64,000 bases of DNA from positions 1,672 to 65,671 of the forward strand of contig CAVPTW010000018.1 in NCBI GenBank assembly GCA_963708735.1, read 5' to 3'. This stretch comes from an uncultured Gammaproteobacteria bacterium. GTDB taxonomy: Bacteria; Pseudomonadota; Gammaproteobacteria; Pseudomonadales; Porticoccaceae. The notes under the pieces are model-generated. The model did no database searches and was not told the origin of the DNA. It worked only from the letters and a program-made list of their open reading frames with translations. Both the position numbers and the translations under genes were made by a program. Below, in pieces: positions 24,764-64,000 of the stretch. The number at the start of each line of letters is the position of its first letter. Within the stretch, counting starts at the first letter, position 1.

Positions 24764-24781
24764 TGGAATTCTGCTTTGTCA

Positions 24782-33171: not shown

Positions 33172-33200
33172 ACCGGGTCGATCTGGCCCGGTGTTTTTTT
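33172..33200 (+). terminator. Candidate Rho-independent terminator closing a roughly 400-nt stretch without a convincing CDS
   Basis: A 6-bp GC-rich stem, ACCGGG / CCCGGT, has a 9-nt loop and is followed by G plus T7. Confidence 0.4.
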
Positions 33201-33229
33201 AAATAGACATGTCAACAAGGAAAGCAATC

Positions 33230-33295
33230 ATGATTGGTATTCTGGTCGCAGTGGCACTGGTTTTCACCATTATTTATCTGGCACAAAGAACCTGA
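33230..33295 (+). CDS. Candidate 21-aa hydrophobic peptide (not in the ORF track)
   Basis: My own translation gives MIGILVAVALVFTIIYLAQRT, one TM-length helix. AAGGAAAG lies 6-13 nt upstream of the ATG. The ORF sits between a terminator and the ABC transporter genes. Confidence 0.35.
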   Translation: MIGILVAVALVFTIIYLAQRT

Positions 33296-33319
33296 ACCAG
33301 CGGTATAGCTTCCGGTCCA

Positions 33320-43790: not shown

Positions 43791-46700
43791 CTATTTCGCC
43801 GAATCGCTGAAAATGCGCTCGACTTCGATGTGGGGATCCTCCCAGGGACCGGTGACCCGGTACCCCAGGCTGGAAATTTTATCGACCTGACGATCAAACA
43901 CCCGACTCGTGAGATACACGCCGGCCGCCGCCGGCAGTCCGCCCGCCAGGGCGGCGATCCAGGGCAGGTTGGTGCCCACCGGCAGGGTCGCCACCAGGTG
44001 CGCATCGATGGTTTCGTCCACCAGGTTGGCACGGCCTTCCAGACGCATCCTGCCCGAGGGTAAATCGACTTTTACAGGATTGGCAAAAATCAGGGTGCCG
44101 GTGTCGAAGGTCAGGGTGGTTTTTACCGCGTCGAAAGCCACTCCGCTGGCGAACAGGTCGGAAAAATCGAGACGCAGGCGACGCAACCAGGTATCGAAGT
44201 TGATCAAACCGATCAGTTTCATCGCGACGCTGGAGGCGGCGCCCGACGTCCGGTGAAAGGAGCCCTTCAGGATCTGTATCCCCACATCGCCGCGCAGCAC
44301 CCGGGCACTGAATTTCCAGGGTTTGTCGTCCCATTCCAGCACGGTCGTGAAGGTCGAGTGCGCGCTCTCGATGGCGCCCGGCAAACCCCAGGCGCGCAGC
44401 ACTCCGGCCAGATCATCGCTCTCGAGGACGCTCTCGAACCGGGTCTGGTCGTGCTCGCCGAGCCGACGCCATAGCAGCGTGGAGGAACCCTCCCCGCTAC
44501 CGACCGCGAGGCCGGTGATCTCGCCACGCAGCGCGCTGGCCTGGATGCCGTCCGGCACCCGGCGCAGGGCAAACCCGAGATGGCCCAGCTCCCGCTCGCC
44601 GACGCGCAGGCCCTGGGTGGAGAAGTCCAGATCCGGGAGCGACCGGGGATCGAATTGCGTCAGCACGCCCTGGTCGCCGGCGAAATCCGGTTTGGGCAGC
44701 ACCAGATGATCCAGATGCAACCCGACCGGGCTGCCATCCAGCGGGACCACCAGGTCGCCCGCCGCCGTGGCGCTGACGCCGTGCAGGCGCCAGGCGCCAT
44801 CCGCCACTGCTCCGGCAACCCTGATGCCATCGAGTTGCAGCCCCATTGCCTGCAACCTGTCTATCTGCAAGCTCAGGCGCGGCGCAGGGGCGCTCATGAA
44901 ATCCCGCGGTCCCGCCCCGGCGGGCAGGCGTGCACGCCAGGCATCGACATCCAGCGCGCCGAGGTGGCCGCGCACGCTCAGGCCCGGCGTGGACGGCAGC
45001 TCTGCCGCCACGCCGCCAAGGGCCACCTCGGCACGCTCGATCCGGCCATTCCCGAACCGGGCGCGGGCCGCCAGATCGGTGCCCAGATGGGTGTCCACGT
45101 CGATATTCTTGGCGCCGAAAGTCAGGCGCGTGGTCAAGGTCAGCGGCGCATCGGGATTCACTTTCGCGAACGGCGCCGGCAGGCTGGAACGGACACCCTG
45201 GAGACTGGATTCCAGCACCAGTTGCGACGGCTTCCCGTCGCCGGGAATGCGATAACTGACGGAGTAATCTGTGTCTCCCGCTACCGTGCCCCGCAGCCAG
45301 TCTGGCCACACCGGCAAATCTTCCACCGCGACCTGGCCGCGTGACTCGATCCAGGTCTGGCCGTGCAGGTCGCCGTGAACGGTCGCCTGCAGTTCCTGAC
45401 CCCAGAAGCGCGCCGTAAGCCCGTTTGCCGTCAAGCCATCGGCCTCGGAAAAAGTGAGGTCGCCACGGATGCGTTCGAATTTCAGGCCGCTCGCGCGGTG
45501 CGTCAGTGCCGCATCCGCGAGTTTGGCGGCGACCCGATAACGTTCGCCGGTGCTCTGTTTCGACAGCGGAATCCGCAGATCCAGGGCGACCGCGACCGGA
45601 CCCTCGGCCTGCCAGTCGCGCAGCGGTTCGATCCGGCTCCGCAGGGGCGATTGCGCCAGTACCCCGAGCGCCCGTGAAACCTCGGTCGCGGCAGTGGCGG
45701 TGACCGCCAGCAACGGCTTGCTGTTGCCCGCCACCTCGATAGTCCGAAACCGGATGTCCCGCACCGGGACACCGGCGATGGTCGCGGCCTCCGCCCGGCC
45801 GGACACATCGGTATTGTCGACCACGACATAGGCATTCACATCGGTCAACCCCGGCCACCCGGGATCGTAGTCGATCGCTGCTTCCGCCACCCGGGCATAA
45901 ACCTCGATGGCCCGGTGCGGGCCGGCCTCCTTCGCGATGGTCCCGCGCCAGATGAATCCCCCTTCGACCACGCGCATGTCGCCCAGGGAGCGGTCGAGCC
46001 ACTGCAACAGCTCCGGCTCCAGCACCCGGGGAATGTACTGTCGCGCATACGCCGCATCGCTGTTGCGGATGCCGGCGCTGAGCCAGAGTTCGCCGTGGGC
46101 GCCGTGGACCAGCGGCTGGTACAGGCTGAAGGCCGCGCGAATGCTGCCCGCGTCGCCGCTGGCGTCGATGTCGAGCGGAGCACCCTGGATCGTCAGCGCC
46201 GAATAGTCGTCATTGAGCGCGAAATCCACGCGGCCACGGACTTGCCCCACGCGGGAAAAATGGTCATAGGCCTCGGGAAACAGTATCGCCAGCTCGGTCT
46301 TGCCATCCAGGGTCAGGACACCATCGTGGCCCGTCGCCGCCAGCGTTCCGGACACACCGGTCAGCGCCGGGCTGCCGTGCCAGGACGCGACCGCCACATT
46401 TTCGAGTGTCGCTCGAAATCCGGTCACATTGCCGGGGCGGCCGAGATCGATGTCCACCCGGGGATACGCCAGCCGCCCGGTCGGATTCAGCGCGGCAATC
46501 ACTTCAGCGGCGGGCTTTGGAAGCAGGTCGCTGGCGAGTGCCATGGCGTTGAGCGTGCCCAGATCGAGATGATCGGCGGCCAGACTGAATTGGGGGCTAG
46601 CGGCGCCCAGGCGCTGGCGAAACTCCAGGGTCAGTGGCGCGATGTCGCGCCCATTCCAGGTGAAGGCAAGCTGCTGCAGACGCAAGCCCCAGTCGTCGGG

Positions 46701-47627
46701 GCCGAGCCAGCCGGTGATATCGGCCTTGAGATCGCGCAGCGGGCTCGCCGTGGGCGCTGCCCCCAGCGGCACACTGTCGGTGGCGACCCGCCCGACGATC
46801 TCGGCTCGGCCGTCCCCGGCTGCGGTCAACCATATCTCGGCATCTACGGGCGCCGCGACTGGCACCAGCCGCTGCACCCAATCCGGCGTCAGACCGCGCA
46901 ATATCACCCCGAGCGATCCGGCGAGATTGAGCCGCGACAGTTTCAGGTAGCTGCTGCCCTCCAGATCGCGCCAGTCCGCAGCGTTCGCGCCGACGCCGCG
47001 CCACTCCGCGAGGGCCGTCGCAAACTCTTGCCCGGCAATTTCCAGAGTAGCGCCGGCGCGATGAAAATCACCGCTGTTTTCCAGCAGCAGATTGTTCGCC
47101 GCGATCAGCTCACTGGCGCCGGAGCGGAAATGGAGGGTGATTTCAGCCCGCGCAACGCGCGTCCGCCGACTTGCCAGCAGCATGTCGATCACCTGCCTCG
47201 CCGCGCCCTGCGTATTGGGTGCGCCGCTATCCAGGGCCCAGCCGGTGGGCGTTTCCGTGAGACGGATCTGCAAACGGGCGAGCGACAGGTCGGACCAGAC
47301 CGGCCGGCGGGCGAACAGACTGTGGAACAGATCAACCTCTGCGTCCAGGGCATCCATCACCAGAAACGGCGGCTGGCCAGATGCAGCGGCCACACGCACT
47401 GATCCCGCCCATAAATGCGGCGACAACCGGGTCCAGGCGCCGTTCAGTTGCCGGGCCTCGGCGACGGCGCCCAGACGTTCGGACAGGACGGAGTCGAGCC
47501 GCGGTTGCAGATGGTCCAGCCGCGGCAGCAACTCCCGGCCCACCCCCACCAGCAGGGCATAAGCGATGACGAGCAGCGCCGAGCATGCCCAGACCCAACG
47601 CACCAGACGTCCCGCCATGCCCGCCAT
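43791..47627 (-). CDS. yhdP: YhdP-family (AsmA-like) envelope lipid-transport protein
   Basis: It is a 1278-aa protein with an N-terminal TM anchor. It lies immediately downstream of rng on the minus strand, the conserved position for yhdP. Confidence 0.8.
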   Translation of the reverse strand: MAGMAGRLVRWVWACSALLVIAYALLVGVGRELLPRLDHLQPRLDSVLSERLGAVAEARQLNGAWTRLSPHLWAGSVRVAAASGQPPFLVMDALDAEVDLFHSLFARRPVWSDLSLARLQIRLTETPTGWALDSGAPNTQGAARQVIDMLLASRRTRVARAEITLHFRSGASELIAANNLLLENSGDFHRAGATLEIAGQEFATALAEWRGVGANAADWRDLEGSSYLKLSRLNLAGSLGVILRGLTPDWVQRLVPVAAPVDAEIWLTAAGDGRAEIVGRVATDSVPLGAAPTASPLRDLKADITGWLGPDDWGLRLQQLAFTWNGRDIAPLTLEFRQRLGAASPQFSLAADHLDLGTLNAMALASDLLPKPAAEVIAALNPTGRLAYPRVDIDLGRPGNVTGFRATLENVAVASWHGSPALTGVSGTLAATGHDGVLTLDGKTELAILFPEAYDHFSRVGQVRGRVDFALNDDYSALTIQGAPLDIDASGDAGSIRAAFSLYQPLVHGAHGELWLSAGIRNSDAAYARQYIPRVLEPELLQWLDRSLGDMRVVEGGFIWRGTIAKEAGPHRAIEVYARVAEAAIDYDPGWPGLTDVNAYVVVDNTDVSGRAEAATIAGVPVRDIRFRTIEVAGNSKPLLAVTATAATEVSRALGVLAQSPLRSRIEPLRDWQAEGPVAVALDLRIPLSKQSTGERYRVAAKLADAALTHRASGLKFERIRGDLTFSEADGLTANGLTARFWGQELQATVHGDLHGQTWIESRGQVAVEDLPVWPDWLRGTVAGDTDYSVSYRIPGDGKPSQLVLESSLQGVRSSLPAPFAKVNPDAPLTLTTRLTFGAKNIDVDTHLGTDLAARARFGNGRIERAEVALGGVAAELPSTPGLSVRGHLGALDVDAWRARLPAGAGPRDFMSAPAPRLSLQIDRLQAMGLQLDGIRVAGAVADGAWRLHGVSATAAGDLVVPLDGSPVGLHLDHLVLPKPDFAGDQGVLTQFDPRSLPDLDFSTQGLRVGERELGHLGFALRRVPDGIQASALRGEITGLAVGSGEGSSTLLWRRLGEHDQTRFESVLESDDLAGVLRAWGLPGAIESAHSTFTTVLEWDDKPWKFSARVLRGDVGIQILKGSFHRTSGAASSVAMKLIGLINFDTWLRRLRLDFSDLFASGVAFDAVKTTLTFDTGTLIFANPVKVDLPSGRMRLEGRANLVDETIDAHLVATLPVGTNLPWIAALAGGLPAAAGVYLTSRVFDRQVDKISSLGYRVTGPWEDPHIEVERIFSDSAK

Positions 47628-47687
47628 GGTTACTGCTGCGCGGGCAACTGCGGCGGGACGCGTTGGCGGCAGCGGCGTCCCGCCAGG

Positions 47688-49169
47688 TCAGAGCGGCACA
47701 ATGTCGAATTGCTCCTGCGAATAAAGGCTCTCCACCCGGAATTCGATCGGCCGCTTGATGAAAGCCTCGAGATCGGCAACATCGGTGGAGTTCTCGGAGA
47801 GCAGGCGGTCGATCACGCTGTGCGCGGCCATCACGCGAATTTTCTGGCACTCGAACGTCCGTGCTTCACGCAGAATCTCGCGGAATATCTCGAAGGTGAC
47901 GGTCTCGGGCGACTTCATGTAGCCCCTGCCGTTACAGACACCACAGGGCTCGCAGAGTTGCTGCTGCAGGTTCTCGTGGGTGCGCTTGCGGGTCATTTCC
48001 ACCAGGCCGAGCTGGGATACGCCGGAAATCGTGAGTTTGGCGCGATCCGTGGCGAGCGCGTTCTCCAGGGCGCGCAACACCTGGCGGCGGTGTTCGGGAT
48101 CCTGCATATCGATGAAGTCGAGGATGATGATGCCGCCCAGGTTGCGCAGGCGGATCTGGCGGGCGATGGCGCCCGCCGCCTCGACATTGGTCTTGAAGAT
48201 GGTCTGTTCGAGGTTGTGACGACCGGTGTAGGAGCCGGTGTTGACGTCGATGGTCGTCATCGCCTCGTTCTGATCGATGACCAGATAGCCGCCCGATTTG
48301 AGGTCCACGCGCCGCTCCAGCGCGCGCGATATTTCCTCTTCGACGCCGTACAGCGAAAACAGCGGGCGCTCGCCCCGGTAGCGCTCGATCAGGTCCCGGA
48401 CTTCGGAATTGAAGTAGGCAGTGAAGCGCCCGAGCAGGTCGAATACCTCGTCGGAATCCACCCGGATACGGTCGATGCCTTCGGGATTTAGATCGCGCAA
48501 GGTGCGCAGGGTCAGCGGCAGGTCTTCGTACAGACAGCCAACGGTCTCGCTGGAAGCGATCTTGTCCTTGACGTAGGCCCAGAGCCGGTGGAGAAACGCG
48601 ACTTCCGCGCTCAACTCCTCGCGGGTTGCGCCTTCGGCGACGGTGCGGATGATGTAGCCGCTGGGTTCCTCGCACACTTCCTGCCCGGCGATCGCCAGTT
48701 CGAGCGCCTGCCGCAGGCGCTCGCGCTCGGCTTCGTCCTCGATCCGCTGCGAAATGCCGATGTGATCGGTCTTGGGCATGAACACCAGCAAGCGCGAGGA
48801 CACCGAAAGGAAGGTGGTGAGGCGCGGCCCCTTGGTCCCGATGGGGTCTTTCAGCACCTGTACCGCCAGCAGGTCGCCCTCGTGCAGCAGCTCGCGGATA
48901 TCGCGCTCGCCGCTCGCCCAGCGGTCGACCGTCTCGCCGGCGCGCGGGCGCAGGTCGTTGATGTGGATGAAGCCGGCCTTGTCGCGCCCGATATCGATGA
49001 AGGCAGCCTGCATTCCAGGCATCACCCGAACCACCTTGCCCTTGTAGATATTGCCTACCAGGCCGCGTTTTTGCGCGCGCTCGATGCTGATTTCCTGCAG
49101 CACCCCGTTGTCGACCCGGGCGACCCGGGTCTCCGAGGGCGTGATGTTGATCAGTATCTCTCCGCTCAT
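47688..49169 (-). CDS. rng: Ribonuclease G
   Basis: It has an S1-like N-terminus (NIYKGKVVRVMPGMQAAFIDIG) and the RNase E/G catalytic core (GGIIILDFIDM). Confidence 0.93.
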   Translation of the reverse strand: MSGEILINITPSETRVARVDNGVLQEISIERAQKRGLVGNIYKGKVVRVMPGMQAAFIDIGRDKAGFIHINDLRPRAGETVDRWASGERDIRELLHEGDLLAVQVLKDPIGTKGPRLTTFLSVSSRLLVFMPKTDHIGISQRIEDEAERERLRQALELAIAGQEVCEEPSGYIIRTVAEGATREELSAEVAFLHRLWAYVKDKIASSETVGCLYEDLPLTLRTLRDLNPEGIDRIRVDSDEVFDLLGRFTAYFNSEVRDLIERYRGERPLFSLYGVEEEISRALERRVDLKSGGYLVIDQNEAMTTIDVNTGSYTGRHNLEQTIFKTNVEAAGAIARQIRLRNLGGIIILDFIDMQDPEHRRQVLRALENALATDRAKLTISGVSQLGLVEMTRKRTHENLQQQLCEPCGVCNGRGYMKSPETVTFEIFREILREARTFECQKIRVMAAHSVIDRLLSENSTDVADLEAFIKRPIEFRVESLYSQEQFDIVPL

Positions 49170-49822
49170 ATCCGGCTCGGTCCGCAGTCGATGGCAAAAT
49201 CACACAACAGTTTATAGGTTTCAGCCACCGGGAGCCCGACCACGCCGGAGTAGCTGCCCTCGATGCGGGTCACGAAGATACCGCCCATACCCTGTAGTGC
49301 GTAGCCGCCGGCCTTGTCCGCCGGTTCGCCGCTGTGCCAGTAGGATCGGCATTCGGCGGTCGATAACTCACGGAAGGTCACCGCGGTCTCTACCAGGACG
49401 CCGGCCGCGGCCGCGCCCCGGACCAGCGCGACCGCGGTGAGGACCTGATGGGTGCGTCCGGACAATGCCATCAGCATGGCGACCGCCTCGGCTTCACCAG
49501 CGGGTTTGCCGAGCATACGGCCCTCGCACACCACGGTGGTGTCCGCACCCAGCACCGGCAGGACAGCGCCGATGGCGTCGGCGACGGCGCGCGCCTTGGC
49601 AAGCGCCAGGCGCGCCACATAGTCGCGCGGCCGTTCGGCGGGTTTGGGGGTTTCATCGAGATGCGCGGGAACCACGGCGAAGCGGACGCCGATACCCGCC
49701 AGCAGGGCGCTGCGCCGTGGCGAGGCCGACGCCAGCACCAGATCCGCCGCGGCGAGGGCTACCGCGCCGCCCTGTGCGGGGTTCGCAGCCCTGCGGTCGG
49801 CTGCATCACCAGCTCCGGTCAT
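49166..49822 (-). CDS. maf: Maf-family nucleoside triphosphate pyrophosphatase
   Basis: Motifs LVLASASPRRSALL and GKPAGEAEA; the product also contains AYGIQ-like YALQGMGG. The start is uncertain and a later GTG is possible. Confidence 0.85.
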   Translation of the reverse strand: MTGAGDAADRRAANPAQGGAVALAAADLVLASASPRRSALLAGIGVRFAVVPAHLDETPKPAERPRDYVARLALAKARAVADAIGAVLPVLGADTTVVCEGRMLGKPAGEAEAVAMLMALSGRTHQVLTAVALVRGAAAAGVLVETAVTFRELSTAECRSYWHSGEPADKAGGYALQGMGGIFVTRIEGSYSGVVGLPVAETYKLLCDFAIDCGPSRI

Positions 49823-50285
49823 GCAGCCGACCGAGCAAAAATACCAGCAGCGGCCATACCAGCATCGCACCCAGCGCCGAATAGAACTGGGCGAGGTGCA
49901 GGGTGCCACCCCGTTCCAGCAGGCCAAAGGCCACCATGATCAACTGGAACACCAGTGTCAACGCGCCGGCGACCAGGCACTGATAGGGGATGGTGAAATG
50001 ACGCACCCGGTGTTCGAGCCGTTGTGCCAGGTAGGCCGTGACACAGAACGCCAGGGCGTACTCACCGCCCGGAGTGCCGAGCATCAGGTCGAGCAGCAGG
50101 CCGATCAGAAACGCAAACCCCAGCCCATAGAGGACAGGACCAAACAGCACCCAGTACAGGGTTACCAGCAGGACCAGGGGTGGCATCAGATACTGCGTCC
50201 AGGACCGCGCCCCGTTGATGGTCAGCACCAGCGCGACGCACAGCGAGCCGGCAACCTGCAGCACGGCGTTGCCCCTAGCCGCCAT
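49806..50285 (-). CDS. mreD: Rod shape-determining protein MreD
   Basis: It is a 159-aa polytopic membrane protein directly after mreC. Confidence 0.8.
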   Translation of the reverse strand: MAARGNAVLQVAGSLCVALVLTINGARSWTQYLMPPLVLLVTLYWVLFGPVLYGLGFAFLIGLLLDLMLGTPGGEYALAFCVTAYLAQRLEHRVRHFTIPYQCLVAGALTLVFQLIMVAFGLLERGGTLHLAQFYSALGAMLVWPLLVFLLGRLHDRSW

Positions 50286-51120
50286 GGGGGGCCCCGGACG
50301 CTGGCTCGGGAAATACCAGCAGCAGATGCCGACTGCGATCCAGCTCGGCTGCCGGCGTAACGGTGACCTCGACAAATGGCTGTCCGGGCTGGAGCTCGAT
50401 GCTCGCCACCCGACCGACCGGATAGCCGGCGGGAAAGTGACCCCCGAGGCCCGAGGTCAGCAGCAGATCGTTCACTGCAATCTCCAGCGTCGGCTGCACA
50501 TGGCGCAGCCGCAGACGCCGGTAATCCCCGGTGCCCTCCGCGATGGCGCGCATGTCGGTGCCCGCCACCCGCACCGGCACCGCGTGGCGCTCGTCGCTGA
50601 CCAGCAGGACTTCCGCCCGCTCGGCCGACACCTGCACCACCTGGCCCATCAATCCGCCGCTGTCGAGCACCGCCTGACCGATGAAGACCCCATCGTGCTC
50701 GCCGCGATCGATGGTGATCTGATGGCGTCGGGGATCGGGAGAGACCCCGATCAGCTCCGCCATCAGCAGGCGCAACTTGGGCGTTTGGTGTGCATTGAGG
50801 AGGGTGCGCAGCCGGACATTCTCCGCGCCGAGTTCGGCGAGCTGCTGGAGCTGGCCTTTGAGTACCAGCAGCTCGGCCTGCAGCTGCCGGTTTTTGACGG
50901 CGAGTCCGCCCGGACCGGCGACGTTGGTCCGGCTCCATTCCACCATCTGACCGGGCAGATTGCCCAGCCAGGACAGGGGCCGCGCCGCGGTTTCGAGCCA
51001 GGCGCGCGCCGGGGCGAATACCGCGGTGTAGTGGTCGGCCAGGAGGAGTATCACCGCCAGCGTCACCAACAGCAGCATCCGTGGCGCCGATACCGGTTTG
51101 GTGAAAATCTTGTTCTCCAT
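50275..51120 (-). CDS. mreC: Rod shape-determining protein MreC
   Basis: It has an N-terminal TM helix, a coiled coil (LQAELLVLKGQLQQLAEL) and a beta-rich C-terminus. It lies after mreB. Confidence 0.88.
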   Translation of the reverse strand: MENKIFTKPVSAPRMLLLVTLAVILLLADHYTAVFAPARAWLETAARPLSWLGNLPGQMVEWSRTNVAGPGGLAVKNRQLQAELLVLKGQLQQLAELGAENVRLRTLLNAHQTPKLRLLMAELIGVSPDPRRHQITIDRGEHDGVFIGQAVLDSGGLMGQVVQVSAERAEVLLVSDERHAVPVRVAGTDMRAIAEGTGDYRRLRLRHVQPTLEIAVNDLLLTSGLGGHFPAGYPVGRVASIELQPGQPFVEVTVTPAAELDRSRHLLLVFPEPASGAPHGG

Positions 51121-51169
51121 GGCGCTCCGCGACCGTTCGGCGCAGGGACAGAGAGCTCCCCGAACCGGC

Positions 51170-52222
<1,053 letters not shown>

Positions 52223-52367
52223 CTAAGGGGCCCGGCGGCGGTGCCACCGGACGGCGAATAGGGGTGTGACCGCAGACCAATTCCCGCACCGGGATTCAGC
52301 TCGGGAGGTCATCCGTGCTACCCTGTGGGCGTTGCCGGAAGCTCGTGAAACAGGCGGAAACTATAGC

Positions 52368-52655
52368 ATGTCGATCCAACGCGCCGACATCGAAAAATTG
52401 GCCGAGCTGGCGCGTATCCACGTTAATGAGGATACCGTCACTGCCACGACACTCGGCATCAACCGGGTGCTGGAGTTGATCGATCAGCTGCGCGCCGCCG
52501 ACACCACCGGCATCGCCCCCCTGGCCAACCCCCTCGACGCCACCCAGCGCCTGCGCGAGGATGTGGTCTCTGAGTTCGTCGATCGGGATGCACTCCAGGC
52601 CGTCGCCCCGGCGGTCGAGGGCGGACTCTACCTGGTGCCCAAAGTCGTCGAGTGA
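52368..52655 (+). CDS. gatC: Asp/Glu-tRNA amidotransferase subunit C
   Basis: The product starts [17 protein letters not shown], is 95 aa long, and precedes gatA. Confidence 0.9.
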
Positions 52656-52713
52656 GCGTGCGCACGCCGCCAGCGCTGGCGGCACCCCGCAGCCCTGTAC
52701 CGGACCCTGTTCA

Positions 52714-54180
52714 ATGCATGACCTGACCCTAGCCCAGATGTGCCACGGCCTGGCGCGCCGGGACTTTTCCAGTGCCGAACTCACGCGTCATCTGCTGACC
52801 CGCGTCAAGGCGGCCAATCCGCACTACAACGCCTTCATTACCATCGGCGAAGAACGGGCGCTGGCCCAGGCCGCCGCCGCCGACCGGCGCCGCGCGGCGG
52901 GGGATGCGCCGGCACTGTGCGGCCTGCCCATTGCCCACAAGGATATTTTCTGCACCCGGGGTCTGCGCACCAGCTGCGGCTCGCGGATGCTCGACAACTT
53001 CGTGCCGCCCTACGACGCCACCGTGGTCGAGCGCTTTGCCGGCGTCGGTGCCGTGGTACTGGGCAAGACCAACATGGACGAGTTCGCCATGGGCTCGTCC
53101 AACGAGACCAGCTACTACGGTCCGGTCAAAAATCCCTGGGCGATCGACTGCGTCCCGGGCGGCTCCTCCGGCGGCTCGGCGGCGGCCTTGGCGGCGCGTC
53201 TGGTGCCGGGCGCCACCGCCTCGGACACCGGCGGATCCATCCGCCAGCCGGCGGCGCTGTGCGGCGTCACCGGACTCAAGCCCACCTACGGTCGCGTATC
53301 CCGCTGGGGCATGATCGCGTTTGCTTCCAGTCTCGACCAGGCCGGCCCCATGGCCCGCAGCGCCGAAGACGTGGCGCTGCTGCTCCAGGTCATGGCGGGC
53401 TTCGACGAGCGGGACTCCACCTGCCTCGACCGCCCCGTGCCGGATTACTGCGCGACCCTGGAGCAACCCCTGGCCGGACTGCGCATCGGCGTGCCGGAGG
53501 AATATTTCGGCGCCGGCCTCAACCCCGGCACCGAGCGCGCGGTACGCGAGGCGCTCGCCGAATTCGTGCGCCAGGGCGCCCGTCTGGTGGCCATCAGCCT
53601 GCCCCATTCCGGACTCGCAGTGCCCGCCTACTATGTGATCGCGCCCGCCGAAGCCTCGGCCAACCTGTCGCGCTTCGACGGCGTGCGCTACGGCCACCGC
53701 TGTGCGGACCCGGTCGATCTGCGCGACCTCTACATGCGCACCCGGGAAGAGGGCTTCGGCGACGAGGTCAAACGCCGCATCCTGATCGGTACCTACTGCC
53801 TGTCCGCCGGCTACTACGACGCCTACTACAACAAGGCGCAGCAGGTACGGCGACTGATTCGGCAGGATTTTCTCGACGCCTTCGCGAACGTCGACCTGAT
53901 CCTGGGCCCCACCTGCCCCAACCCGGCCTTTGCGTTCGGCGCCAAGGGTGACGATCCGGTGGCCATGTATCTCGAGGACATCTACACCATCGCTGCCAAC
54001 CTCGCCGGGCTGCCGGCACTGTCGGTGCCCTGCGGTCTGGTGGATGCCAAGCCCGTGGGCCTGCAGATCATCGGCAACTACTTCGACGAGGCGCGCATGC
54101 TGAACGCCGCCCATCGCTACCAGTTGGCGACCGGCTGGCATCAACTGGCGCCGCCCGCGCTGGCGGAGGCCGCCGCATGA
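52714..54180 (+). CDS. gatA: Asp/Glu-tRNA amidotransferase subunit A
   Basis: The amidase signature [13 protein letters not shown] and the motif [12 protein letters not shown] are present. Confidence 0.95.
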
Positions 54181-55619
54181 GCTGGGAAACCGTGATCGGA
54201 CTCGAAGTCCACCTCCAGCTCGCCACCCGCTCCAAGCTGTTCTCCGGCGCCGCGACCGCGTTCGGCGCCGCGCCCAACACCCAGGCCTGCGCCATCGACC
54301 TGGCGCTGCCCGGTACCTTGCCGCTGCTGAACCGGGCTGCGGTCGAAATGGCGATCCGCTTCGGGCTCGCGGTCGATGCCGAGATCAATCCGGTGTCGGT
54401 GTTCGAGCGCAAGAACTACTTCTATCCGGACCTGCCCAAGGGCTACCAGACCACCCAGCTCGCGCATCCCATCGTGGGGCCGGGCCATCTCGACATCGAG
54501 CTCGCCGACGGGCGCGAGAAGCGCATCCGCATCCACCACGCCCACCTGGAAGAGGACGCCGGCAAGTCGCTGCACGAGGACTTCCACGGCCTGTCGGGGA
54601 TCGACCTCAACCGTGCCGGCACGCCGCTGATCGAGATCGTCACCGAGCCGGACCTGCGCAGCGCCGAGGAAGCCGTCGCGTTCGCGAAGAAACTCCACGC
54701 CATCGTTACCGCGCTCGGGATCAGCGACGGCGATATGTCCCAGGGCTCGATGCGCTTCGATGTCAACGTCTCGGTGCGCCGCCCGGGCGAACCCCTGGGC
54801 ACCCGCACCGAGACCAAGAACCTCAACTCGTTCCGGTTCATGGAGCGCGCCATCGCCAAGGAGGTCGCGCGCCAGATCGGCGTTCTGGAGGACGGCGGCC
54901 GGGTGATCCAGGAAACCCGCCTCTACGACGGCGACACCGACAGCGCCCGCGCCATGCGGAGCAAGGAAGAGGCCAACGATTACCGCTACTTTCCCTGCCC
55001 GGACCTGTTGCCGGTGCAGGTCGAGCCGGCCCTGATCGAACGGCTGCGCGCCACCCAGCCGGAGCTGCCGGAAGCGCGCCGGGCGCGCTTCGTCACCGAG
55101 TACGGACTGTCCGACTACGACGCCGGTCAGCTCGCCGCCGACACGCCCACCGCGCACTACTTCGAGGCGGCGGCCAAGGCATCCGGCGATCCCAAGCTGG
55201 CCGCCAACTGGCTGATGGGCGAGATTGCCGCGCGCCTCAACAGCACCGAGACGGTCATCGCCGCCTGCCCGGTGAGCCCGGCCCAGCTCGGCGGCTTGCT
55301 GCAACGGATTCTCGACCGCACCATCTCCAACGCCATTGCGCGCCAGGTGTTCGAGGCGCTCTGGAACGGCGCCAGCGACGCCGACACCGTGATCGCGGCC
55401 AAGGGGCTGCAACAGGTCTCCGACAGCGGCGTCATCGCCGCCCTGGTCGAGCAGGTACTGGCGGCCAACCCCAAACAGGTGGCCGACTACCGCGCCGCCG
55501 CGGACGACAAGAAAGCCAAGATGCTCGGCTTTTTCGTCGGTCAGGTCATGAAAGCCTCGGGCGGCAAGGTCAATCCCCAGCAGCTCAACGAACTGCTCGC
55601 CACCCAGCTCAACGGATAA
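54177..55619 (+). CDS. gatB: Asp/Glu-tRNA amidotransferase subunit B
   Basis: Motifs [27 protein letters not shown] and HLEEDAGK. Confidence 0.96.
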
Positions 55620-55635
55620 TGCAGAGGACATCGCC

Positions 55636-55926
55636 ATGGCGCTGAAAAAAGACAAGGTGCAGGTCATCGGCGAAGTCTTCGACGCGGCGCGGCTGCGCAG
55701 CTTCCTCGACTATCAACCGCCCGCCGGCGTCGACCCCGACTACCATGTGCTGGAGAAAGCCTACCGGGGCATGGGTGCCGAGAATTTTGCGGACTTCCTG
55801 GCGCTGTTCATCGCCGCCGGCCGCAACCCGCACGCCACCAATCCCGCCGGACAGACCCTGGCCGAGGTGATCCGGAACCAGCGCCACGCCGAACCCTATC
55901 TGGCGGCGCTCGAGCGTCTTGCCTGA
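55636..55926 (+). CDS. Conserved hypothetical protein (96 aa) downstream of gatB
   Basis: The frame is open with plausible composition and lies 16 nt after gatB. I do not recognise the family with confidence. Confidence 0.5.
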   Translation: MALKKDKVQVIGEVFDAARLRSFLDYQPPAGVDPDYHVLEKAYRGMGAENFADFLALFIAAGRNPHATNPAGQTLAEVIRNQRHAEPYLAALERLA

Positions 55927-55985
55927 GCCGCGCGCCGCCGGCCGCTTCCCCATCCTGAAACCCGCAACTCACTGAGGAATCCACC

Positions 55986-58070
<2,085 letters not shown>

Positions 58071-58170
58071 CTTTTTTGCGGCCCGCAACAACGCCACGCC
58101 GGCCGGTGACCGTCAGCCTCGCCTGACGGCCCAGCGGTGCCGGCAGGCGTTGTTGGCGTAGGAGCGCGTA

Positions 58171-61100
58171 ATGCCCGAAAAAGAAGCCACCGCCCGCATC
58201 AAGATCAACCGGCTGCTGGAAGCGGCCGGCTGGCGGTTCTTCGCTGACGGCGCGCTGCCGGCCAATATCAGGCTTGAGCCCGGCGTCGCGCTCAAATCCC
58301 ACGATCTCGACGCGCTGGGCAACGACTTCGATAAAACGAGCAAGGGCTTCGTCGATTTCCTGCTGCTGGATGCCAAGGGCTTTCCGCTGCTGGTGCTGGA
58401 GGCCAAGGCCGAAACCAAAAATCCGCTGGCCGGCAAGGAGCAGGCGCGCAAATACGCCCGCGCGCAGAACTGCCGCTTCGTCATCCTTTCCAACGGCAAC
58501 CTGCATTACTTCTGGGATCTGGAGCGCGGCAATCCCCATGTCATCACCGCCTTTCCCACCCCGGAGTCGGTGGTCGGCTACCAGAAGGTCACGCCCAACC
58601 CGGCGCGGCTGACGGACGAAAAAGTCGCTGACGACTACATCGTCCTCACGCAGCGCCCGACTTACGCTCTTGATGCCGGCTGGAAGAGCGCGGCTGAGCG
58701 CCCGGCCTACATCCAGGCCAACAAGCTGCGTTTCCTGCGGCCCTACCAGCTCCAGGCCATCCATGCCCTGCAACGGGCGGTCGGCGAGGGCAGGGACCGC
58801 TTCCTGTTCGAGATGGCCACCGGCACCGGCAAGACGCTCACCGCCGCCGCCATCATCAAGCTGTACCTGCGCTCCGGCAACGCCCGGCGGGTGTTGTTTC
58901 TGGTCGATCGCCTCGAACTCGAAGACCAGGCCAAAAAGGCCTTTGCGGGCCTGTTGTCTGCCGACTTCCAGACCGTCATCTACAAGGAAAACCGCGACGA
59001 CTGGCGCCGCGCCGAGATCGTCGTCACCACTGTGCAGTCGCTGCTGTTCAACAACAAATACCAGCGCCTGTTCTCGCCCACCGATTTCGATCTGGTGATC
59101 TCGGACGAGGCGCACCGCTCCATCGGCGGCAACGCCCGCGCCGTGTTCGATTACTTCGTCGGCGACAAGCTGGGGCTCACCGCCACGCCGCGCGACTACC
59201 TGCGCCGCTTCGACAGCGCCAAACCGGGCAGCCGCGATCCGCGCGAGGCCGAACGCCGCCTGCTGCTGGACACCTACCGCACCTTCGGCTGCGAATCCGG
59301 CCAGCCGACCTTCCGCTACTCGCTGCTCGATGGCGTGAAGGACGGCTATCTGATCAACCCCACCGTGGTGGACGCCCGTACCGACGTCACCACCGAACTG
59401 CTTTCGGAAGAGGGCTTCGTCGTCACCGTCACCGACGACACCGGCGAGGACCAGCAAGAGGCCTTCAAGCAGCGCGAGTTCGAGAAGCGCTTTTTCTCGG
59501 ATGCCACCAACCAGCTTTTCTGCAAGACCTTTCTGGAACACGCCCTGCGCGACCCGGTCAGCGGGGAGGTCGGCAAGTCCATCGTGTTTGCCGTCAGCCA
59601 GCACCACGCCGCCAAGCTGGCGCAGATCCTCAACCAGATGGCCGACCGGATGTTCCCCGGCAAGTACCAGTCCGACTTCGCCGTGCAGGTCACGTCGCAG
59701 ATTCAGGACGCCCAGCAGTTCACCATCAACTTTGCCAACAACAACCTGCTCGGCGCCGGCAATTTCATCTCCGCCTACAAGACCAGCAAGGCGCGGGTGT
59801 GCGTCACCGTGGGCATGATGACCACCGGCTACGACTGCACGGACATCCTGAACCTGGGCCTGCTGCGGCCGATCTTCTCGCCGACGGATTTCATCCAGAT
59901 CAAGGGTCGTGGCACCCGCAAGCACGACTTTCGCGAGCAACTGTTCGACGACGCCCTCAAGGCCGGCGTCACCCGGCCCGAGAAAACCGCCTTCAAGCTG
60001 TTCGACTTTTTTGCCAACTGCGAATACTTCGAGACCGAGTTCAATTACGACGAAGTGCTGAAGCTGCCGCGTCCCCGCATGCACAGCGCCGACGACGGCC
60101 GCGATACCGGCGCGATGGCAGTACGACGGCAACTACGAGCACCTGGGCAGCGACATCCTGGCCGGCATCAAGGAAGAGACCATCGGCCACGACGGCATGA
60201 AGATCGACCGCATGTTCTTCGCGCGCTTCGAAGACGCCGTGCGCGAGAACGCCGACATCGTCGCGGCCGTGGAGGCCGGCCAGTGGGATCACGTCATCGA
60301 CTACCTGAGCGCCCGGCCTACATCCAGGCCAACAAGCTGCGCTTCCTGCGGCCCTACCAGCTCCAGGCCATCCATGCCCTGCAACGGGCGGTCGGCGAGG
60401 GCAGGGACCGCTTCCTGTTCGAGATGGCCACCGGCACCGGCAAGACCCTCACCGCCGCCGCCATCATCAAGCTGTACCTGCGCTCCGGCAACGCCCGGCG
60501 GGTGCTGTTTCTGGTCGATCGCCTCGAACTCGAAGACCAGGCCAAAAAGGCCTTTGCGGGCCTGTTGTCCGCCGACTTCCAGACCGTCATCTACAAGGAA
60601 AACCGCGACGACTGGCGCCGCGCCGAGATCGTCGTCACCACCGTGCAGTCGCTGCTGTTCAACAACAAATACCAGCGCCTGTTCTCGCCGACCGACTTCG
60701 ATCTGGTGATCTCGGACGAGGCGCACCGCTCCATCGGCGGCAACGCCCGCGCCGTGTTCGATTACTTCGTCGGCGACAAGCTCGGCCTCACCGCCACGCC
60801 GCGCGACTACCTGCGCCGTTTCGACAGCGCCAAGCCGGGCAGCCGCGATCCGCGCGAGGCCGAACGCCGCCTGCTGCTGGACACCTACCGCACCTTCGGC
60901 TGCGAATCCGGCCAGCCGACCTTCCGCTACTCGCTGCTCGATGGCGTGAAGGACGGCTATCTGGTCAACCCCACCGTGGTCGACGCCCGCACCGACGTCA
61001 CCACCGAGCTGCTTTCGGAAGAGGGCTTCATCGTCACGGTCACCGACGACACCGGCGAGGACCAGCAGGAGGCCTTCAAGCAGCGCGAGTTCGAGAAGCG

Positions 61101-62322
61101 CTTTTTCTCCGACGCCACCAACCAGCTTTTCTGCAAGACCTTTCTGGAACACGCCCTGCGCGATCCGGTCAGCGGCGAGATCGGCAAATCCATCGTGTTT
61201 GCCGTCAGCCAGCACCACGCCGCCAAGCTGGCGCAGATCCTCAACCAGATGGCCGACCGGATGTTCCCCGGCAAGTACCAGTCGGACTTCGCCGTGCAGG
61301 TCACGTCGCAGATTCAGGACGCCCAGCAGTTCACCATCAACTTTGCCAACAACAACCTGCTCGGCGCCGGCAATTTCATCCCCGCCTACAAGACCAGCAA
61401 GGCGCGGGTGTGCGTGACCGTGGGCATGATGACCACCGGCTACGACTGCACCGACATCCTGAACCTGGGCCTGCTTCGGCCCATCTTCTCGCCCACCGAT
61501 TTCATCCAGATCAAGGGCCGCGGCACCCGCAAGCACGACTTTCGCGAGCAACTGTTCGACGACGCCCTCAAGGCCGGCGTCACCCGGCCCGAGAAAACCG
61601 CCTTCAAGCTGTTCGACTTTTTTGCCAACTGCGAATACTTCGAGACCGAGTTCAATTACGACGAAGTGCTGAAGCTGCCGCGTCCCCGCATGCACAGCGC
61701 CGACGACGGCCGCGATACCGGCGCGGTGGCGTACGACGGCAACTACGAGCACCTGGGCAGCGACATCCTGGCCGGCATCAAGGAAGAGACCATCGGCCAC
61801 GACGGCATGAAGATCGACCGCATGTTCTTCGCGCGCTTCGAAGACGCCGTGCGCGAGAACGCCGACATCGTCGCGGCCGTGGAGGCCGGGCACTGGGATC
61901 AGGTGATCGACTACGTCAACCGCGAGGTCTTCGACAAGCCCGAGGAGTTCTACAACCTCGACAAGCTGCGCCGGGCCGCCGCCGTGGATCGCCGCCTGAC
62001 CCTGCGCGAGATTCTGGAGAAAATCTTCGGCCTGATCCCGCGCTTCAAGTCCAGGGACGAGTTGCTGGAGGAGGAATTCGCCAAGTTCGTCGCCGACGCC
62101 AAGCCCGGCGAGGCCGCCGCCATGCCGGCCATCAAGACCTACTTCAAGGCCTACGTCAGCAGCGGCCAGATCCGCGACATCATCGACCGCAAGGACTTCA
62201 CCGTTCTGGCCACCCACCCCATGTTCTGCACCCGCGACTTCAAGGCGGTGCCGGCCAGGTACCGCGCCCTCATCCCCGATTACGTCAAGGACTACGTTTC
62301 GCTCAACCAGTTCGCGCCATGA
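58171..62322 (+). CDS. hsdR: Type I restriction endonuclease R subunit (COG4096/EcoEI-like) carrying an internal tandem duplication of the helicase motor
   Basis: The N-terminus is an HSDR_N PD-(D/E)xK nuclease (DFLLLD...LEAK). The SF2 motifs MATGTGKT, SDEAHR, LTATPR and QIKGRGTR each occur twice. The C-terminus is an EcoEI_R_C-like tail. The product is 1383 aa, against 846 aa if one repeat unit is removed. Confidence 0.8.
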   Translation: MPEKEATARIKINRLLEAAGWRFFADGALPANIRLEPGVALKSHDLDALGNDFDKTSKGFVDFLLLDAKGFPLLVLEAKAETKNPLAGKEQARKYARAQNCRFVILSNGNLHYFWDLERGNPHVITAFPTPESVVGYQKVTPNPARLTDEKVADDYIVLTQRPTYALDAGWKSAAERPAYIQANKLRFLRPYQLQAIHALQRAVGEGRDRFLFEMATGTGKTLTAAAIIKLYLRSGNARRVLFLVDRLELEDQAKKAFAGLLSADFQTVIYKENRDDWRRAEIVVTTVQSLLFNNKYQRLFSPTDFDLVISDEAHRSIGGNARAVFDYFVGDKLGLTATPRDYLRRFDSAKPGSRDPREAERRLLLDTYRTFGCESGQPTFRYSLLDGVKDGYLINPTVVDARTDVTTELLSEEGFVVTVTDDTGEDQQEAFKQREFEKRFFSDATNQLFCKTFLEHALRDPVSGEVGKSIVFAVSQHHAAKLAQILNQMADRMFPGKYQSDFAVQVTSQIQDAQQFTINFANNNLLGAGNFISAYKTSKARVCVTVGMMTTGYDCTDILNLGLLRPIFSPTDFIQIKGRGTRKHDFREQLFDDALKAGVTRPEKTAFKLFDFFANCEYFETEFNYDEVLKLPRPRMHSADDGRDTGAMAVRRQLRAPGQRHPGRHQGRDHRPRRHEDRPHVLRALRRRRARERRHRRGRGGRPVGSRHRLPERPAYIQANKLRFLRPYQLQAIHALQRAVGEGRDRFLFEMATGTGKTLTAAAIIKLYLRSGNARRVLFLVDRLELEDQAKKAFAGLLSADFQTVIYKENRDDWRRAEIVVTTVQSLLFNNKYQRLFSPTDFDLVISDEAHRSIGGNARAVFDYFVGDKLGLTATPRDYLRRFDSAKPGSRDPREAERRLLLDTYRTFGCESGQPTFRYSLLDGVKDGYLVNPTVVDARTDVTTELLSEEGFIVTVTDDTGEDQQEAFKQREFEKRFFSDATNQLFCKTFLEHALRDPVSGEIGKSIVFAVSQHHAAKLAQILNQMADRMFPGKYQSDFAVQVTSQIQDAQQFTINFANNNLLGAGNFIPAYKTSKARVCVTVGMMTTGYDCTDILNLGLLRPIFSPTDFIQIKGRGTRKHDFREQLFDDALKAGVTRPEKTAFKLFDFFANCEYFETEFNYDEVLKLPRPRMHSADDGRDTGAVAYDGNYEHLGSDILAGIKEETIGHDGMKIDRMFFARFEDAVRENADIVAAVEAGHWDQVIDYVNREVFDKPEEFYNLDKLRRAAAVDRRLTLREILEKIFGLIPRFKSRDELLEEEFAKFVADAKPGEAAAMPAIKTYFKAYVSSGQIRDIIDRKDFTVLATHPMFCTRDFKAVPARYRALIPDYVKDYVSLNQFAP
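58694..60304 (+). repeat. Tandem duplication unit, copy 1 (1611 nt, contains one extra base at 60120)
   Basis: It starts with CTGAGCGCCCGGCCTACATCC and ends with ATCGACTAC. It is collinear with 60305-61914. Confidence 0.95.
60305..61914 (+). repeat. Tandem duplication unit, copy 2 (1610 nt)
   Basis: It has the same start and end strings as copy 1. The offset from copy 1 is 1611 nt up to 60119 and 1610 nt after it. Confidence 0.95.
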
Positions 62323-62434
62323 AAATGCGGCGGCCGGCGACAGGCGAGGGTGCGGCGCAAGAATCGGGGTCGCGCGGCCACGGCATCCGGCGTAGACTGA
62401 TGTCAACGACATTGATTGAACTTCGGGGGCTGCC

Positions 62435-62656
62435 ATGAGCCAGATTACCGCCCGGCTGCCGGATGAGCTGGTGGCCGAACTGGACCACGCCGCCAGGCAG
62501 CTTCGGCGCACGCGCGCCGAACTGGTCCGCCAGGCCGTCGAATACTATCTGGACGATTTCGAGGACATTTCCCGCGCCATCGAGGTGCTCAGGGACCCCG
62601 CCGATCCGGTGCTCGACTGGGAAAGCGCCAGGCGCGACCTGATCGACCAACCGTGA
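62435..62656 (+). CDS. Ribbon-helix-helix (CopG/RelB-like) antitoxin
   Basis: MSQITARLPDELVAELDHAARQLRRTRAELVRQAVEYYL is an RHH fold. The stop overlaps the toxin start (GTGA). Confidence 0.8.
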   Translation: MSQITARLPDELVAELDHAARQLRRTRAELVRQAVEYYLDDFEDISRAIEVLRDPADPVLDWESARRDLIDQP

Positions 62657-62907
62657 CCTACCGGGTCCACATCAAGCGCAGCGCCGCCAAGGCGCTGCAA
62701 ACCATCGCCCGGGACGAGCGCCTTCGCCTGATCGAGGCCATCGACCGGCTCGCGGACAATCCCGGCGCCGGCAGCGTGCTCAAGGGGGAGTTCTCCGGCC
62801 TGCGCCGCCTGCGGGTCGGCAATTACCGCATCGTCTACGAAGTGCAGGCGCAGCAACTGGTGGTGCTGGTCGTGCGCATCGGGCACCGCCGCGACATCTA
62901 CCGCTGA
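62653..62907 (+). CDS. RelE/ParE-family type II toxin
   Basis: The segment LKGEFSGLRRLRVGNYRIVYEVQAQQLVVLVVRIGHRRDIY is the canonical RelE/ParE C-terminal pattern. The start is GTG. Confidence 0.85.
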   Translation: MTYRVHIKRSAAKALQTIARDERLRLIEAIDRLADNPGAGSVLKGEFSGLRRLRVGNYRIVYEVQAQQLVVLVVRIGHRRDIYR

Positions 62908-63064
62908 ATACCGCCGAAGATCGCAAGCCCTCGGGGCCTGCGCATTGTTGGAAGCGGTGCGCGCCCAGGCGGCCAGGGAAAGCTTCGTGCGATGATTGCA
63001 GGGCGATTCTGACCAGACTAGACTAAGCCAAATCAAACCATAGATAGACCTGCCGAGGTGGCCC

Positions 63065-63313
63065 ATGACGACCCTCAACATGCTTGAAGCCAAGACCAAC
63101 CTGTCCCGCCTGGTGGACGCCATCGAGCGCGGCGCCGAGCGCGAAATCGTCATCGCCCGCAACGGCAAGCCAGCCGCCCGGCTGGTGCCGATGGCCGACA
63201 GCCCGGTTGAGCAGCGCATCGGCGTCGCGCGCGGCCTGTTCGAGGTGCCGGACGACATCGACACCCACAACGCCGAAGTCGCCGGTCTGTTTATCGGCGG
63301 CGCTGCCCGGTGA
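63065..63313 (+). CDS. Phd/YefM-family type II antitoxin
   Basis: The product starts MTTLNMLEAKTNLSRLVDAIERGAEREIVIARNGKPAARLVP. Confidence 0.85.
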   Translation: MTTLNMLEAKTNLSRLVDAIERGAEREIVIARNGKPAARLVPMADSPVEQRIGVARGLFEVPDDIDTHNAEVAGLFIGGAAR

Positions 63314-63323
63314 CTGTCGCCTG

Positions 63324-63710
63324 ATGAATCTGCTGCTGGATACCCACGTCGCGCTGTGGGCCATCGTGGACAGCCCGCGGCTGTCCGATGCGGCGCGGGA
63401 GCTGATTCTCGCGCCGCGCGCGGTAGTCTGGATCAGCGCCGCCACCGTGTGGGAAATCGCCATCAAGCACAGCCTGGCGCGTGGCGACATGCCGGTGTCC
63501 GGCAGTGCAGCCATCGGCTACTTCCGCGCCGCCGGCTACCGCTTTCTGCCTATCGAGCCGGAACACGCCGCCGCAGTGGAAACCCTGCCGCCGCATCATC
63601 AGGATCCCTTCGACCGCCTGCTGATCGCCCAGGCCCAGGTCGAACCCATGCGCCTGCTCAGCCACGACGCCCACCTGGCGCGCTACGGCGAGTTGGTCGT
63701 CCCCGTCTGA
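63324..63710 (+). CDS. vapC: PIN-domain (VapC-family) type II toxin
   Basis: MNLLLDTHVALWAI carries the first acidic residue, WEIAIK the second, and HQDPFDRLLIAQA is the PIN C-terminal motif. Confidence 0.85.
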   Translation: MNLLLDTHVALWAIVDSPRLSDAARELILAPRAVVWISAATVWEIAIKHSLARGDMPVSGSAAIGYFRAAGYRFLPIEPEHAAAVETLPPHHQDPFDRLLIAQAQVEPMRLLSHDAHLARYGELVVPV

Positions 63711-63726
63711 CCACCGCCGAGCATCC

Positions 63727-64000
63727 ATGGCTCGGCGACACAAGCAGAACCCCATGCTCGACACCGCCACCAAACGCCGCATCGACACCGCCCGCGACAT
63801 CCTGGTCGGCAAGGTGCCCGACCCCAAGAGCCAGGTCGAGCAGATCACCATCGCGCTGATCTACAAGTTCATGGACGACATGGACCTTGAGGCCGAGGAG
63901 CTGGGCGGCCACCGCAAGTTCTTTGCCGGCGATTTTGCCCGCTACGGCTGGGCCAGGCTGATGCGCTCAGGTTTAGGCGGCCACGAGACCCTCAACCTCT
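63727..64000 (+). CDS. hsdM: Type I R-M DNA methyltransferase subunit, 3'-partial (runs off the window)
   Basis: My own translation gives MARRHKQNPMLDTATKRRIDTARDILVGKVPDPKSQVEQITIALIYKFMDDMD..., the HsdM N-terminal domain pattern. It is absent from the ORF track because no stop codon falls in the window. Confidence 0.75.
   Translation, partial: MARRHKQNPMLDTATKRRIDTARDILVGKVPDPKSQVEQITIALIYKFMDDMDLEAEELGGHRKFFAGDFARYGWARLMRSGLGGHETLNL

Follow-up and report, generated by a model that had tools for sequence, protein, structure and literature searches.

An hsdR gene with a tandemly repeated motor in an uncultured Porticoccaceae bacterium appears to combine the alleles of two strains

The type I restriction gene hsdR of an uncultured gammaproteobacterium of the family Porticoccaceae (GenBank assembly GCA_963708735.1) contains a direct, head-to-tail repeat of the region that encodes its superfamily 2 (SF2) motor, and the distribution of the differences between the two copies shows them to be the alleles of two strains and not a duplicate of one sequence which diverged later. 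The repeat lies in a stretch of 64,000 nt on contig CAVPTW010000018.1 (positions 1,672 to 65,671, forward strand), which is referred to as the window and whose own numbering is used throughout. The alignments described below show the window as a chromosome of one type (A) which carries a patch of about 1.95 kb of a second type (B), from 60305 to about 62250, comprising the motor and most of the C-terminal tail, and the haplotype changes exactly at the junction between the copies, 60304/60305. The patch may have been spliced into the A-type hsdR by homology-facilitated illegitimate recombination (HFIR), a reading to which a probability of roughly 0.55 is assigned.

Structure of the repeat and its reading frame

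The initial annotation had placed abutting direct copies at 58694-60304 and 60305-61914, within a single open reading frame (ORF) of 1383 amino acids (aa) whose modules follow the order nuclease-motor-motor-tail, and both the coordinates and the order are borne out. Exactly two occurrences of the anchor string CTGAGCGCCCGGCCTACATCC are present, at 58694 and 60305, and 100 shuffles give no match, while a global alignment of the copies gives 39 mismatches and one gap, or about 97.5% identity. Both copies are enclosed by the one ORF, the parts of which are listed here; “A'-type” refers to the strain, called A', that is represented by the sister metagenome-assembled genome (MAG) GCA_049663945.1.

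58171..62322, forward strand: hsdR ORF, 1383 aa, in which aa 1-650 are native, aa 651-712 are out of frame and aa 713-1383 correspond to native residues 176-846
58171..58693, forward strand: N-terminal PD-(D/E)xK nuclease region (aa 1-174), unduplicated, A-type allele
58694..60304, forward strand: copy 1, 1611 nt, A-type allele, comprising SF2 motor 1 and, out of frame, the initial 61 codons of the C-terminal domain
60115..60121, forward strand: cluster of changes, among them an additional A at 60120 (GATGGCAGTAC), by which copy 1 reaches 1611 nt and the ORF stays open
60121..60306, forward strand: wrong-frame segment, aa 651-712, Arg-rich
60304..60305, forward strand: putative illegitimate junction GACTAC/CTGAGC, without microhomology
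60305..61914, forward strand: copy 2, 1610 nt, B-type allele, with SF2 motor 2 in the native frame
61915..62322, forward strand: C-terminal tail, unduplicated, B-type to 62229 and A'-type from 62268

The motifs GTGKT, DEAH, TATP and QIKGRGTR are each found in both copies, in agreement with the earlier claim that the repeat unit contains all of the SF2 motifs, and the Pfam families ResIII, DEAD and SWI2_SNF2 each match two stretches of the 1383-aa ORF. Deletion of one unit leaves 2541 nt, or 846 aa and a stop codon, which is the canonical length that had been predicted for a one-unit gene: the homologues listed, which are the best 120 of 8000 scored, measure 840-866 aa.

The order of the modules in the proposed fusion therefore stands, but the fusion is not a clean one, since the motors are separated by 62 frameshifted residues and the frame is held by an insertion of 1 nt. 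The repeat unit of 1610 nt is not a multiple of three, so that the join alone would break the reading frame. At 60120, however, copy 1 reads GATGGCAGTAC, where strain A' has GGTGGC-TTAC and copy 2 has GGTGGC-GTAC, and this extra A restores the frame, so that copy 2 is read in its native frame. Translation of the final 184 nt of copy 1 is out of frame and yields 62 Arg-rich nonsense residues (aa 651-712), with the result that the first 61 residues of the C-terminal domain of copy 1 are lost to the frameshift; the native sequence returns at E713, which is E176 of the canonical protein. Were the extra A absent, the ORF would end at about 60707, after 845 aa.

The insertion belongs to a local cluster, in that the window shows 23 differences from strain A', 5 of which fall within the 44 nt from 60078 to 60121. 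At three of these sites copy 1 carries the base of copy 2, while the remaining two changes, G>A at 60115 and +A at 60120, are unique. The cluster could be a small conversion patch from copy 2 accompanied by error-prone synthesis, or it could reflect local trouble in the consensus; a search for a nearby template for the GATGGCAG change, as in templated mutation, found none within 57-64 kb.

Evidence that the copies are two alleles

The substitutions between the copies have the character of differences between functional genes. Codon position 3 accounts for 33 of the 39 (binomial p=6e-11), and only 7 amino-acid differences remain when both copies are read in the native frame. In the segment that is now out of frame, the four allele differences lie at position 3 of the native frame and not of the current frame, which indicates that the divergence arose while both sequences were normal hsdR genes. 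A MAG of the same species of Porticoccaceae (JBFXFL010000052, here L001), which is collinear with window positions 48171-62908 and has a single unit at the locus, agrees with copy 2 at 37 of the 40 sites that differ between the copies and with copy 1 at the other 3.

An ordinary duplication of a single ancestral unit within one genome, followed by divergence in place, would produce the tandem head-to-tail geometry, but it is scarcely credible as the source of these copies. Relative to L001, copy 1 has 37 sites of its own and copy 2 has 3, and branch lengths as uneven as these fit neither a clock nor divergence in place; the substitutions are in addition synonymous in the native frame even where copy 1 has left that frame, and the asymmetry and the synonymous pattern together rule out divergence in place after duplication. 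Two further observations oppose it, namely that copy 1 occurs as a stand-alone allele in another strain, and that the divergent tract does not stop at the end of the repeat, but runs past it into the tail and ends at a crossover.

Haplotype boundaries

The stand-alone A allele is found in two contigs of GCA_049663945.1. Contig 2 (L081) is 99.84% identical to window positions 45986-60248, with one indel in 14.3 kb and a single mismatch in the N-terminal region 58171-58693; it carries the copy-1 allele, with 38 mismatches to copy 2, and the extra A is missing from it. Contig 165 (L082), which begins at the position equivalent to 60122, matches the end of copy 1 at 100% identity, with all four copy-1 variants, and its next sequence is that of the tail (GTCAAC...), with no second unit in between. 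Taken together, these contigs show allele A in the form of a normal one-unit gene, in a strain with flanks that hardly differ from those of the window. The canonical A join is GTCATCGACTAC followed by GTCAACCGCGAG; the junction string is GTCATCGACTAC followed by CTGAGCGCCCGG, or by CTGAGCGCCCGGCC as its right side.

The window and strain A' differ at 38 sites, many of them non-synonymous, in positions 61890-62229, as against 6 in the next 1400 nt. In a five-way alignment the tail of the window is B-type up to 62229, like that of L001 and that of L095, a contig from the same MAG or sample as GCA_049663945.1, and it is A'-type from 62268, beyond which it is 99.6% identical to strain A'. The homologous crossover is accordingly confined to 62230-62267. 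At the other boundary the flanks of the junction share nothing: 58693 is G where 60304 is C, and 61915 is G where 60305 is C, which gives a microhomology of 0 nt. The contigs of GCA_049663945.1 themselves end or start exactly one 127-mer around the segment that is shared by A and B (window-equivalent positions 60248 and 61732), and this points to strain heterogeneity there in that assembly.

Mosaicism is also visible upstream of the repeat. Window positions 58171-58670 differ from L001 at 41 sites (8%), compared with 0.4-2.8% per 500-nt bin in the neighbouring genes gatB and fadB; the hsdR alleles are mosaics whose divergence is much deeper than that of the core genome. Separately, the fadB-like gene contains 6 substitutions relative to strain A' in the 52 nt from 57779 to 57830, within surroundings that are 99.9% identical, and this cluster looks like a short recombination patch.

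Origin of the junction

The proposed course of events is as follows. B-type DNA from a co-occurring strain would have entered an A-type cell by DNA uptake or transfer. The right end of the patch would have been formed by an ordinary homologous crossover within 62230-62267, and the left end by an illegitimate join at 60304/60305, 1610 nt out of register, so that the A-type motor was kept and the B-type motor was added behind it. The 1-nt insertion 184 nt upstream of the join, either pre-existing or acquired, would re-frame motor 2 and the tail at the cost of the 62-residue nonsense linker. If the frameshift was already present in the recipient, an in-frame join would be expected in 1 of 3 cases; an insertion acquired later must have preceded the RecA-mediated collapse of the repeat, which is a much more frequent event. 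We infer both this order of events and that the join was made in a cell, and not in a read or in an assembler; judged from the assembled sequence, the junction has somewhat better than an even chance of being a real molecule.

HFIR and related duplication products have been documented in Acinetobacter, S. pneumoniae, P. stutzeri and E. coli conjugation (PMC3240628), and in these products, as would be the case here, homology anchors one end of the foreign DNA while the other end is attached by an illegitimate join, and the target gene can become partially duplicated. In hsdR the donor-type tract has a homologous crossover on one side (62229-62268), and the alleles of the supposed donor and recipient exist independently, A as a one-unit gene in GCA_049663945.1 and B as the gene of L001 and the tail of L095. 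The hsdR case differs from the laboratory-selected products in that it comes from an environmental genome, and in that donor and recipient are alleles of the same gene, from which a tandem repeat inside the gene follows.

Several considerations weigh against a recombinational origin. The joints produced by HFIR usually have a microhomology of 3-10 nt, whereas the out-of-register joint in hsdR has 0 nt. The junction is known from the assembled sequence, and exact searches for the 26-mer that spans it found it neither in the contigs of GTDB representative genomes nor in JGI metagenome contigs. None of 5.8 billion proteins covers the linker or the junction: a search of these with the linker-plus-junction peptide returned only ordinary N-terminal motor fragments of HsdR, at a coverage of at most 30%, and an exact look-up of the 1383-aa protein gave no record. 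The two alleles co-occur in the sister sample, which an inter-strain chimera would also require. Tandem repeats of 1.6 kb are unstable, which makes a later frame-restoring point insertion an improbable route, and the sole indel in 14 kb, 184 nt from the junction and within a cluster of five differences, could be a sign of local consensus trouble where the haplotype switches.

An artefact of sequencing or assembly is a possible, though less likely, explanation. Under it, there would have been two co-occurring one-unit strains, A and B, and a chimeric read, a mis-join or the merging of contigs would have put part of A before B; the extra A would then be a consensus error or the private frameshift of one strain. 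Each copy and its own flank belong to a different haplotype, which is the hallmark of heterotype false duplications (PMC9516828), where the diverged haplotypes of a single locus end up side by side, with haplotype-specific sites in each copy, as is found for the hsdR copies. The presence of both allele types in the sister MAG (L082 and L095), the breaking of its contigs exactly one 127-mer past the last allele-specific site (equivalents 60248 and 61732), the zero microhomology, the occurrence of the junction nowhere else among the GTDB representatives, the JGI metagenomes and the 5.8 billion proteins, and the adjoining cluster of differences with the only indel all speak for such an artefact as well.

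The structure of the repeat is nevertheless difficult to obtain in this way. Heterotype false duplications in genome assemblies are typically gapped (PMC9516828), but there is no N gap between the hsdR copies at 60304/60305. A graph (de Bruijn) or overlap assembler cannot create a junction of unshared sequences unless a read contains that junction, which means that the hsdR junction cannot come from overlap or k-mer paths. From the ends of the copies to the nearest variant the distances are 9 nt and 37 nt, which fit no k-mer size, and copy 1 stops in the middle of the divergent region and not at the end of a bubble, so that the copies, unlike heterotype false duplications, do not span the whole of that region. 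It would be very unlikely for a random ligation or a pore chimera to link one gene to its counterpart from another strain, in direct orientation but 1.6 kb off register, and beside the hsdR pair the 64-kb window contains no other long repeats. The copies share identical runs of 204, 159 and 129 nt, and yet their phasing is perfect, which implies long-range read information that would also span the 3.2-kb structure; the finding of 1 indel in 14.3 kb relative to strain A' likewise indicates an accurate consensus. The possibility that two strain haplotypes had been concatenated by the assembler, which the initial annotation named as a refutation, thus agrees with the allele content of the copies, but simple concatenation fails to explain the junction.

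Two other candidates were rejected. A strain bubble linearised by the assembler is ruled out by the fact that copy 1 lacks the divergent A-type tail and that the N-terminus occurs only once. Campbell-type integration of a circularised unit is ruled out by the fact that copy 1 is A-type to its last variant and that the B-type tract extends into the tail.

Protein family and domain assignment

Polypeptides with two helicase cassettes are known in the form of the Brr2-type tandem Ski2-like cassettes, and single-polypeptide restriction enzymes in the form of the type ISP enzymes (LlaBIII, PDB 4XQK). The hsdR product, which has a weak match to PDB 4XQK, resembles these in having more than one SF2 module, or extra modules, per chain. 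It differs from these conserved, evolved architectures, in which the linkers are structured, in being a single and unconserved case with a nonsense linker.

Among canonical type I restriction (R) subunits, those of the EcoAI/FtnUII-like type IB are the nearest, and the hsdR product shares with canonical subunits a PD-(D/E)xK nuclease, an SF2 (ResIII) motor and a putative helical C-terminal region, as well as a methyltransferase gene downstream. The N-terminal nuclease is matched at aa 55-120 by Pfam HSDR_N_2 with 26.7 bits (cut-off 25) and by HSDR_N with 24.9 bits, just under the cut-off of 25.1, and residues D62, E77 and K79 are invariant in 27 homologues. The motor is matched by ResIII with 255 bits over two stretches, and has motifs I, II, III and VI. 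A profile alignment places aa 190-598 against residues 180-557 of PDB 3H1T, the HsdR of Vibrio vulnificus, which is the nearest solved structure; past aa 598 there is no sequence match in the PDB. The C-terminal 199 aa have no Pfam match at E<=10, and the EcoEI_R_C-like tail (PF08463) which had been annotated there was found neither in the scan of the full ORF nor, at this threshold, in that of the isolated tail.

Assignment to the EcoAI type is likewise limited. The EcoAI/FtnUII (type IB) HsdR model NF046051 gives 225.5 bits, which does not reach its cut-off of 550, with only aa 47-342 aligned, and the hsdR model TIGR00348 gives 45 bits against a cut-off of 285. The gene differs from the canonical R subunits in its NCBIfam scores below cut-off and in having no EcoEI_R_C, and also in that the partner in its relatives is a fused modification-specificity (M-S) protein. 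An AlphaFold2 prediction for a homologue of 85% identity, P0001, from an alignment of 27 sequences had a mean pLDDT (the per-residue confidence score) of 47, with confident helix only at about aa 755-844, and was unusable for placing the breakpoints on domains.

The family of the one-unit protein, with identities of 75-89%, is spread over Nitrospirota, Chloroflexota, Desulfobacterota, Verrucomicrobiota, Bacillota and Gammaproteobacteria, and such identities across phyla point to very wide and recent horizontal spread; the NCBI name for its members is often only “DEAD/DEAH box helicase family protein”. What sets the hsdR ORF apart from canonical R subunits is that the motor module and 61 tail codons are present twice and that a 62-aa out-of-frame linker lies between the motors. 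A second two-motor case was found neither among the best 120 of 8000 homologues nor among the 175 loci that were fetched, in which all 162 with a near-full motor are single-motor (162/162); this agrees with the earlier remark that no R subunit with a duplicated motor was known.

Function and stability of the repeat

The R subunit is expected to be dead or at best crippled, because copy 1 has lost its putative helical C-terminal domain and the docked motor lies 537 residues further from the nuclease. In EcoR124I the C-terminal helical domain takes part in ATPase activity, translocation and cleavage (PMC5248579).

It is improbable that the ORF represents a functional new architecture, that is, an active R subunit of 1383 aa with two SF2 motors, or with one active and one auxiliary motor, in which selection favoured the insertion because restriction is restored or altered once motor 2 and the docking tail are translated in frame. 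The ORF is uninterrupted, all helicase motifs are kept in both motors, and motor 2 keeps its native link to the C-terminal domain; moreover, that a frame-breaking unit is offset by a +1 only 184 nt upstream, and by the sole indel in 14.3 kb, would, in the absence of selection, be a coincidence. On the other hand, a frameshift that preceded the join would leave a 1 in 3 chance of an in-frame join, for which no selection is required, and collapse by RecA or replacement of the allele would be simpler and far more frequent repairs. The linker consists of out-of-frame residues, the start of the C-terminal domain of copy 1 is destroyed (compare EcoR124I, PMC5248579) and the nuclease is displaced from the docked motor. 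The architecture has one occurrence, with none in the best 120 of 8000 homologues or in the 162 loci, and hsdR is being lost in related populations. Nothing in the comparisons made here would indicate an evolved or conserved two-motor architecture. A working two-motor R subunit made in one step by inter-strain recombination, with its frame kept by selection for the +1, is accordingly given very little weight; if true, it would be a natural domain-level innovation in a type I enzyme caught at birth.

The direct repeats are a substrate for RecA, as had been proposed, but for deletion. The suggested flipping between forms of 1383 aa and 846 aa is not supported, since recombination only deletes and the junction, which has no microhomology, could not be regenerated; inverted repeats, as for a reversible phase-variable switch, were looked for and none were found. 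The two-motor gene could collapse at high frequency to a chimeric canonical hsdR. Deletion by a crossover upstream of 60120, a region that includes 1426 of the 1610 positions (about 89%), would leave an intact chimeric hsdR of 846 aa, and this step would be one-way.

Neighbouring genes and variation at the locus

The features downstream of hsdR are the following.

62435..62907, forward strand: pair of an RHH antitoxin and a ParE toxin, between hsdR and hsdM
63065..63710, forward strand: pair of a Phd/YefM antitoxin and a PIN (VapC) toxin, within the segment 62909-63750 that is absent from L001
63754..64000, forward strand: 5' end of a methyltransferase gene (hsdM or an M-S fusion), which runs off the window

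The partner of hsdR is represented by the methyltransferase N-terminus at 63754 and, in L095, by an N6_Mtase domain after the PIN gene; the specificity part lies outside the window. In two distant relatives (L003, 12551-15067, and L046, 12546-15068) N6_Mtase and Methylase_S are found in a single protein of about 840 aa which directly follows hsdR, with the methyltransferase gene within about 10 nt of it, and a fused M-S partner of this kind implies a system of two genes, R and M-S. The presence of the toxin-antitoxin pairs varies between close strains, as L001 is without Phd/PIN (62909-63750) and L095 is without RHH/ParE.

The hsdR gene itself also varies. In four metagenome contigs (L084, L087, L088 and L089) window positions 58150-62328 are gone and fadB is joined directly to RHH/ParE, while in a fifth (L083) the sequence from about 59013 to 62370 is missing and only an N-terminal stump of hsdR is left. 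These deleted and truncated contigs are 95-97% identical to the window, and they indicate that hsdR is polymorphic for presence and absence at the locus. In L083 (1045-1638) and L085 (1301-1813) the first 10 codons of the methyltransferase (MLDTATKRRI; window 63754-63783) are fused to a half-size Methylase_S protein, which is another rearrangement of the modification and specificity genes.

Further upstream, the region from about 20000 to 34000 has a GC content of 55-57%, compared with about 66% elsewhere in the window, and its genes include one of the OmpA family and one for a hybrid histidine kinase with a response regulator. An ORF at 21354-22568 joins a fatty-acid desaturase domain to a fragment of an ISL3 transposase, and a pair of direct repeats of 130 nt, 72% identical, lies at 23287-23416 and 31734-31863. 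This region is probably an acquired island.

Significance

The repeat in hsdR looks like a one-off product of recombination (or of assembly) and not like an evolved two-motor enzyme. It is a single recombinant hsdR allele, and a new class of enzyme is not established by one unconserved instance with a nonsense linker. Should the junction prove to be an artefact, it is a warning that a giant ORF of intact appearance can arise from two strain haplotypes.

The locus as a whole is a restriction locus in flux, with toxin-antitoxin pairs between the R and M genes and with hsdR deleted or truncated in neighbouring populations. A real junction would provide a rare case from uncultured bacteria in which both parental alleles of an event that is illegitimate at one end and homologous at the other can be identified, and it would mean that the exchange of DNA between strains at a defence locus makes partial duplications and new domain arrangements in one step.

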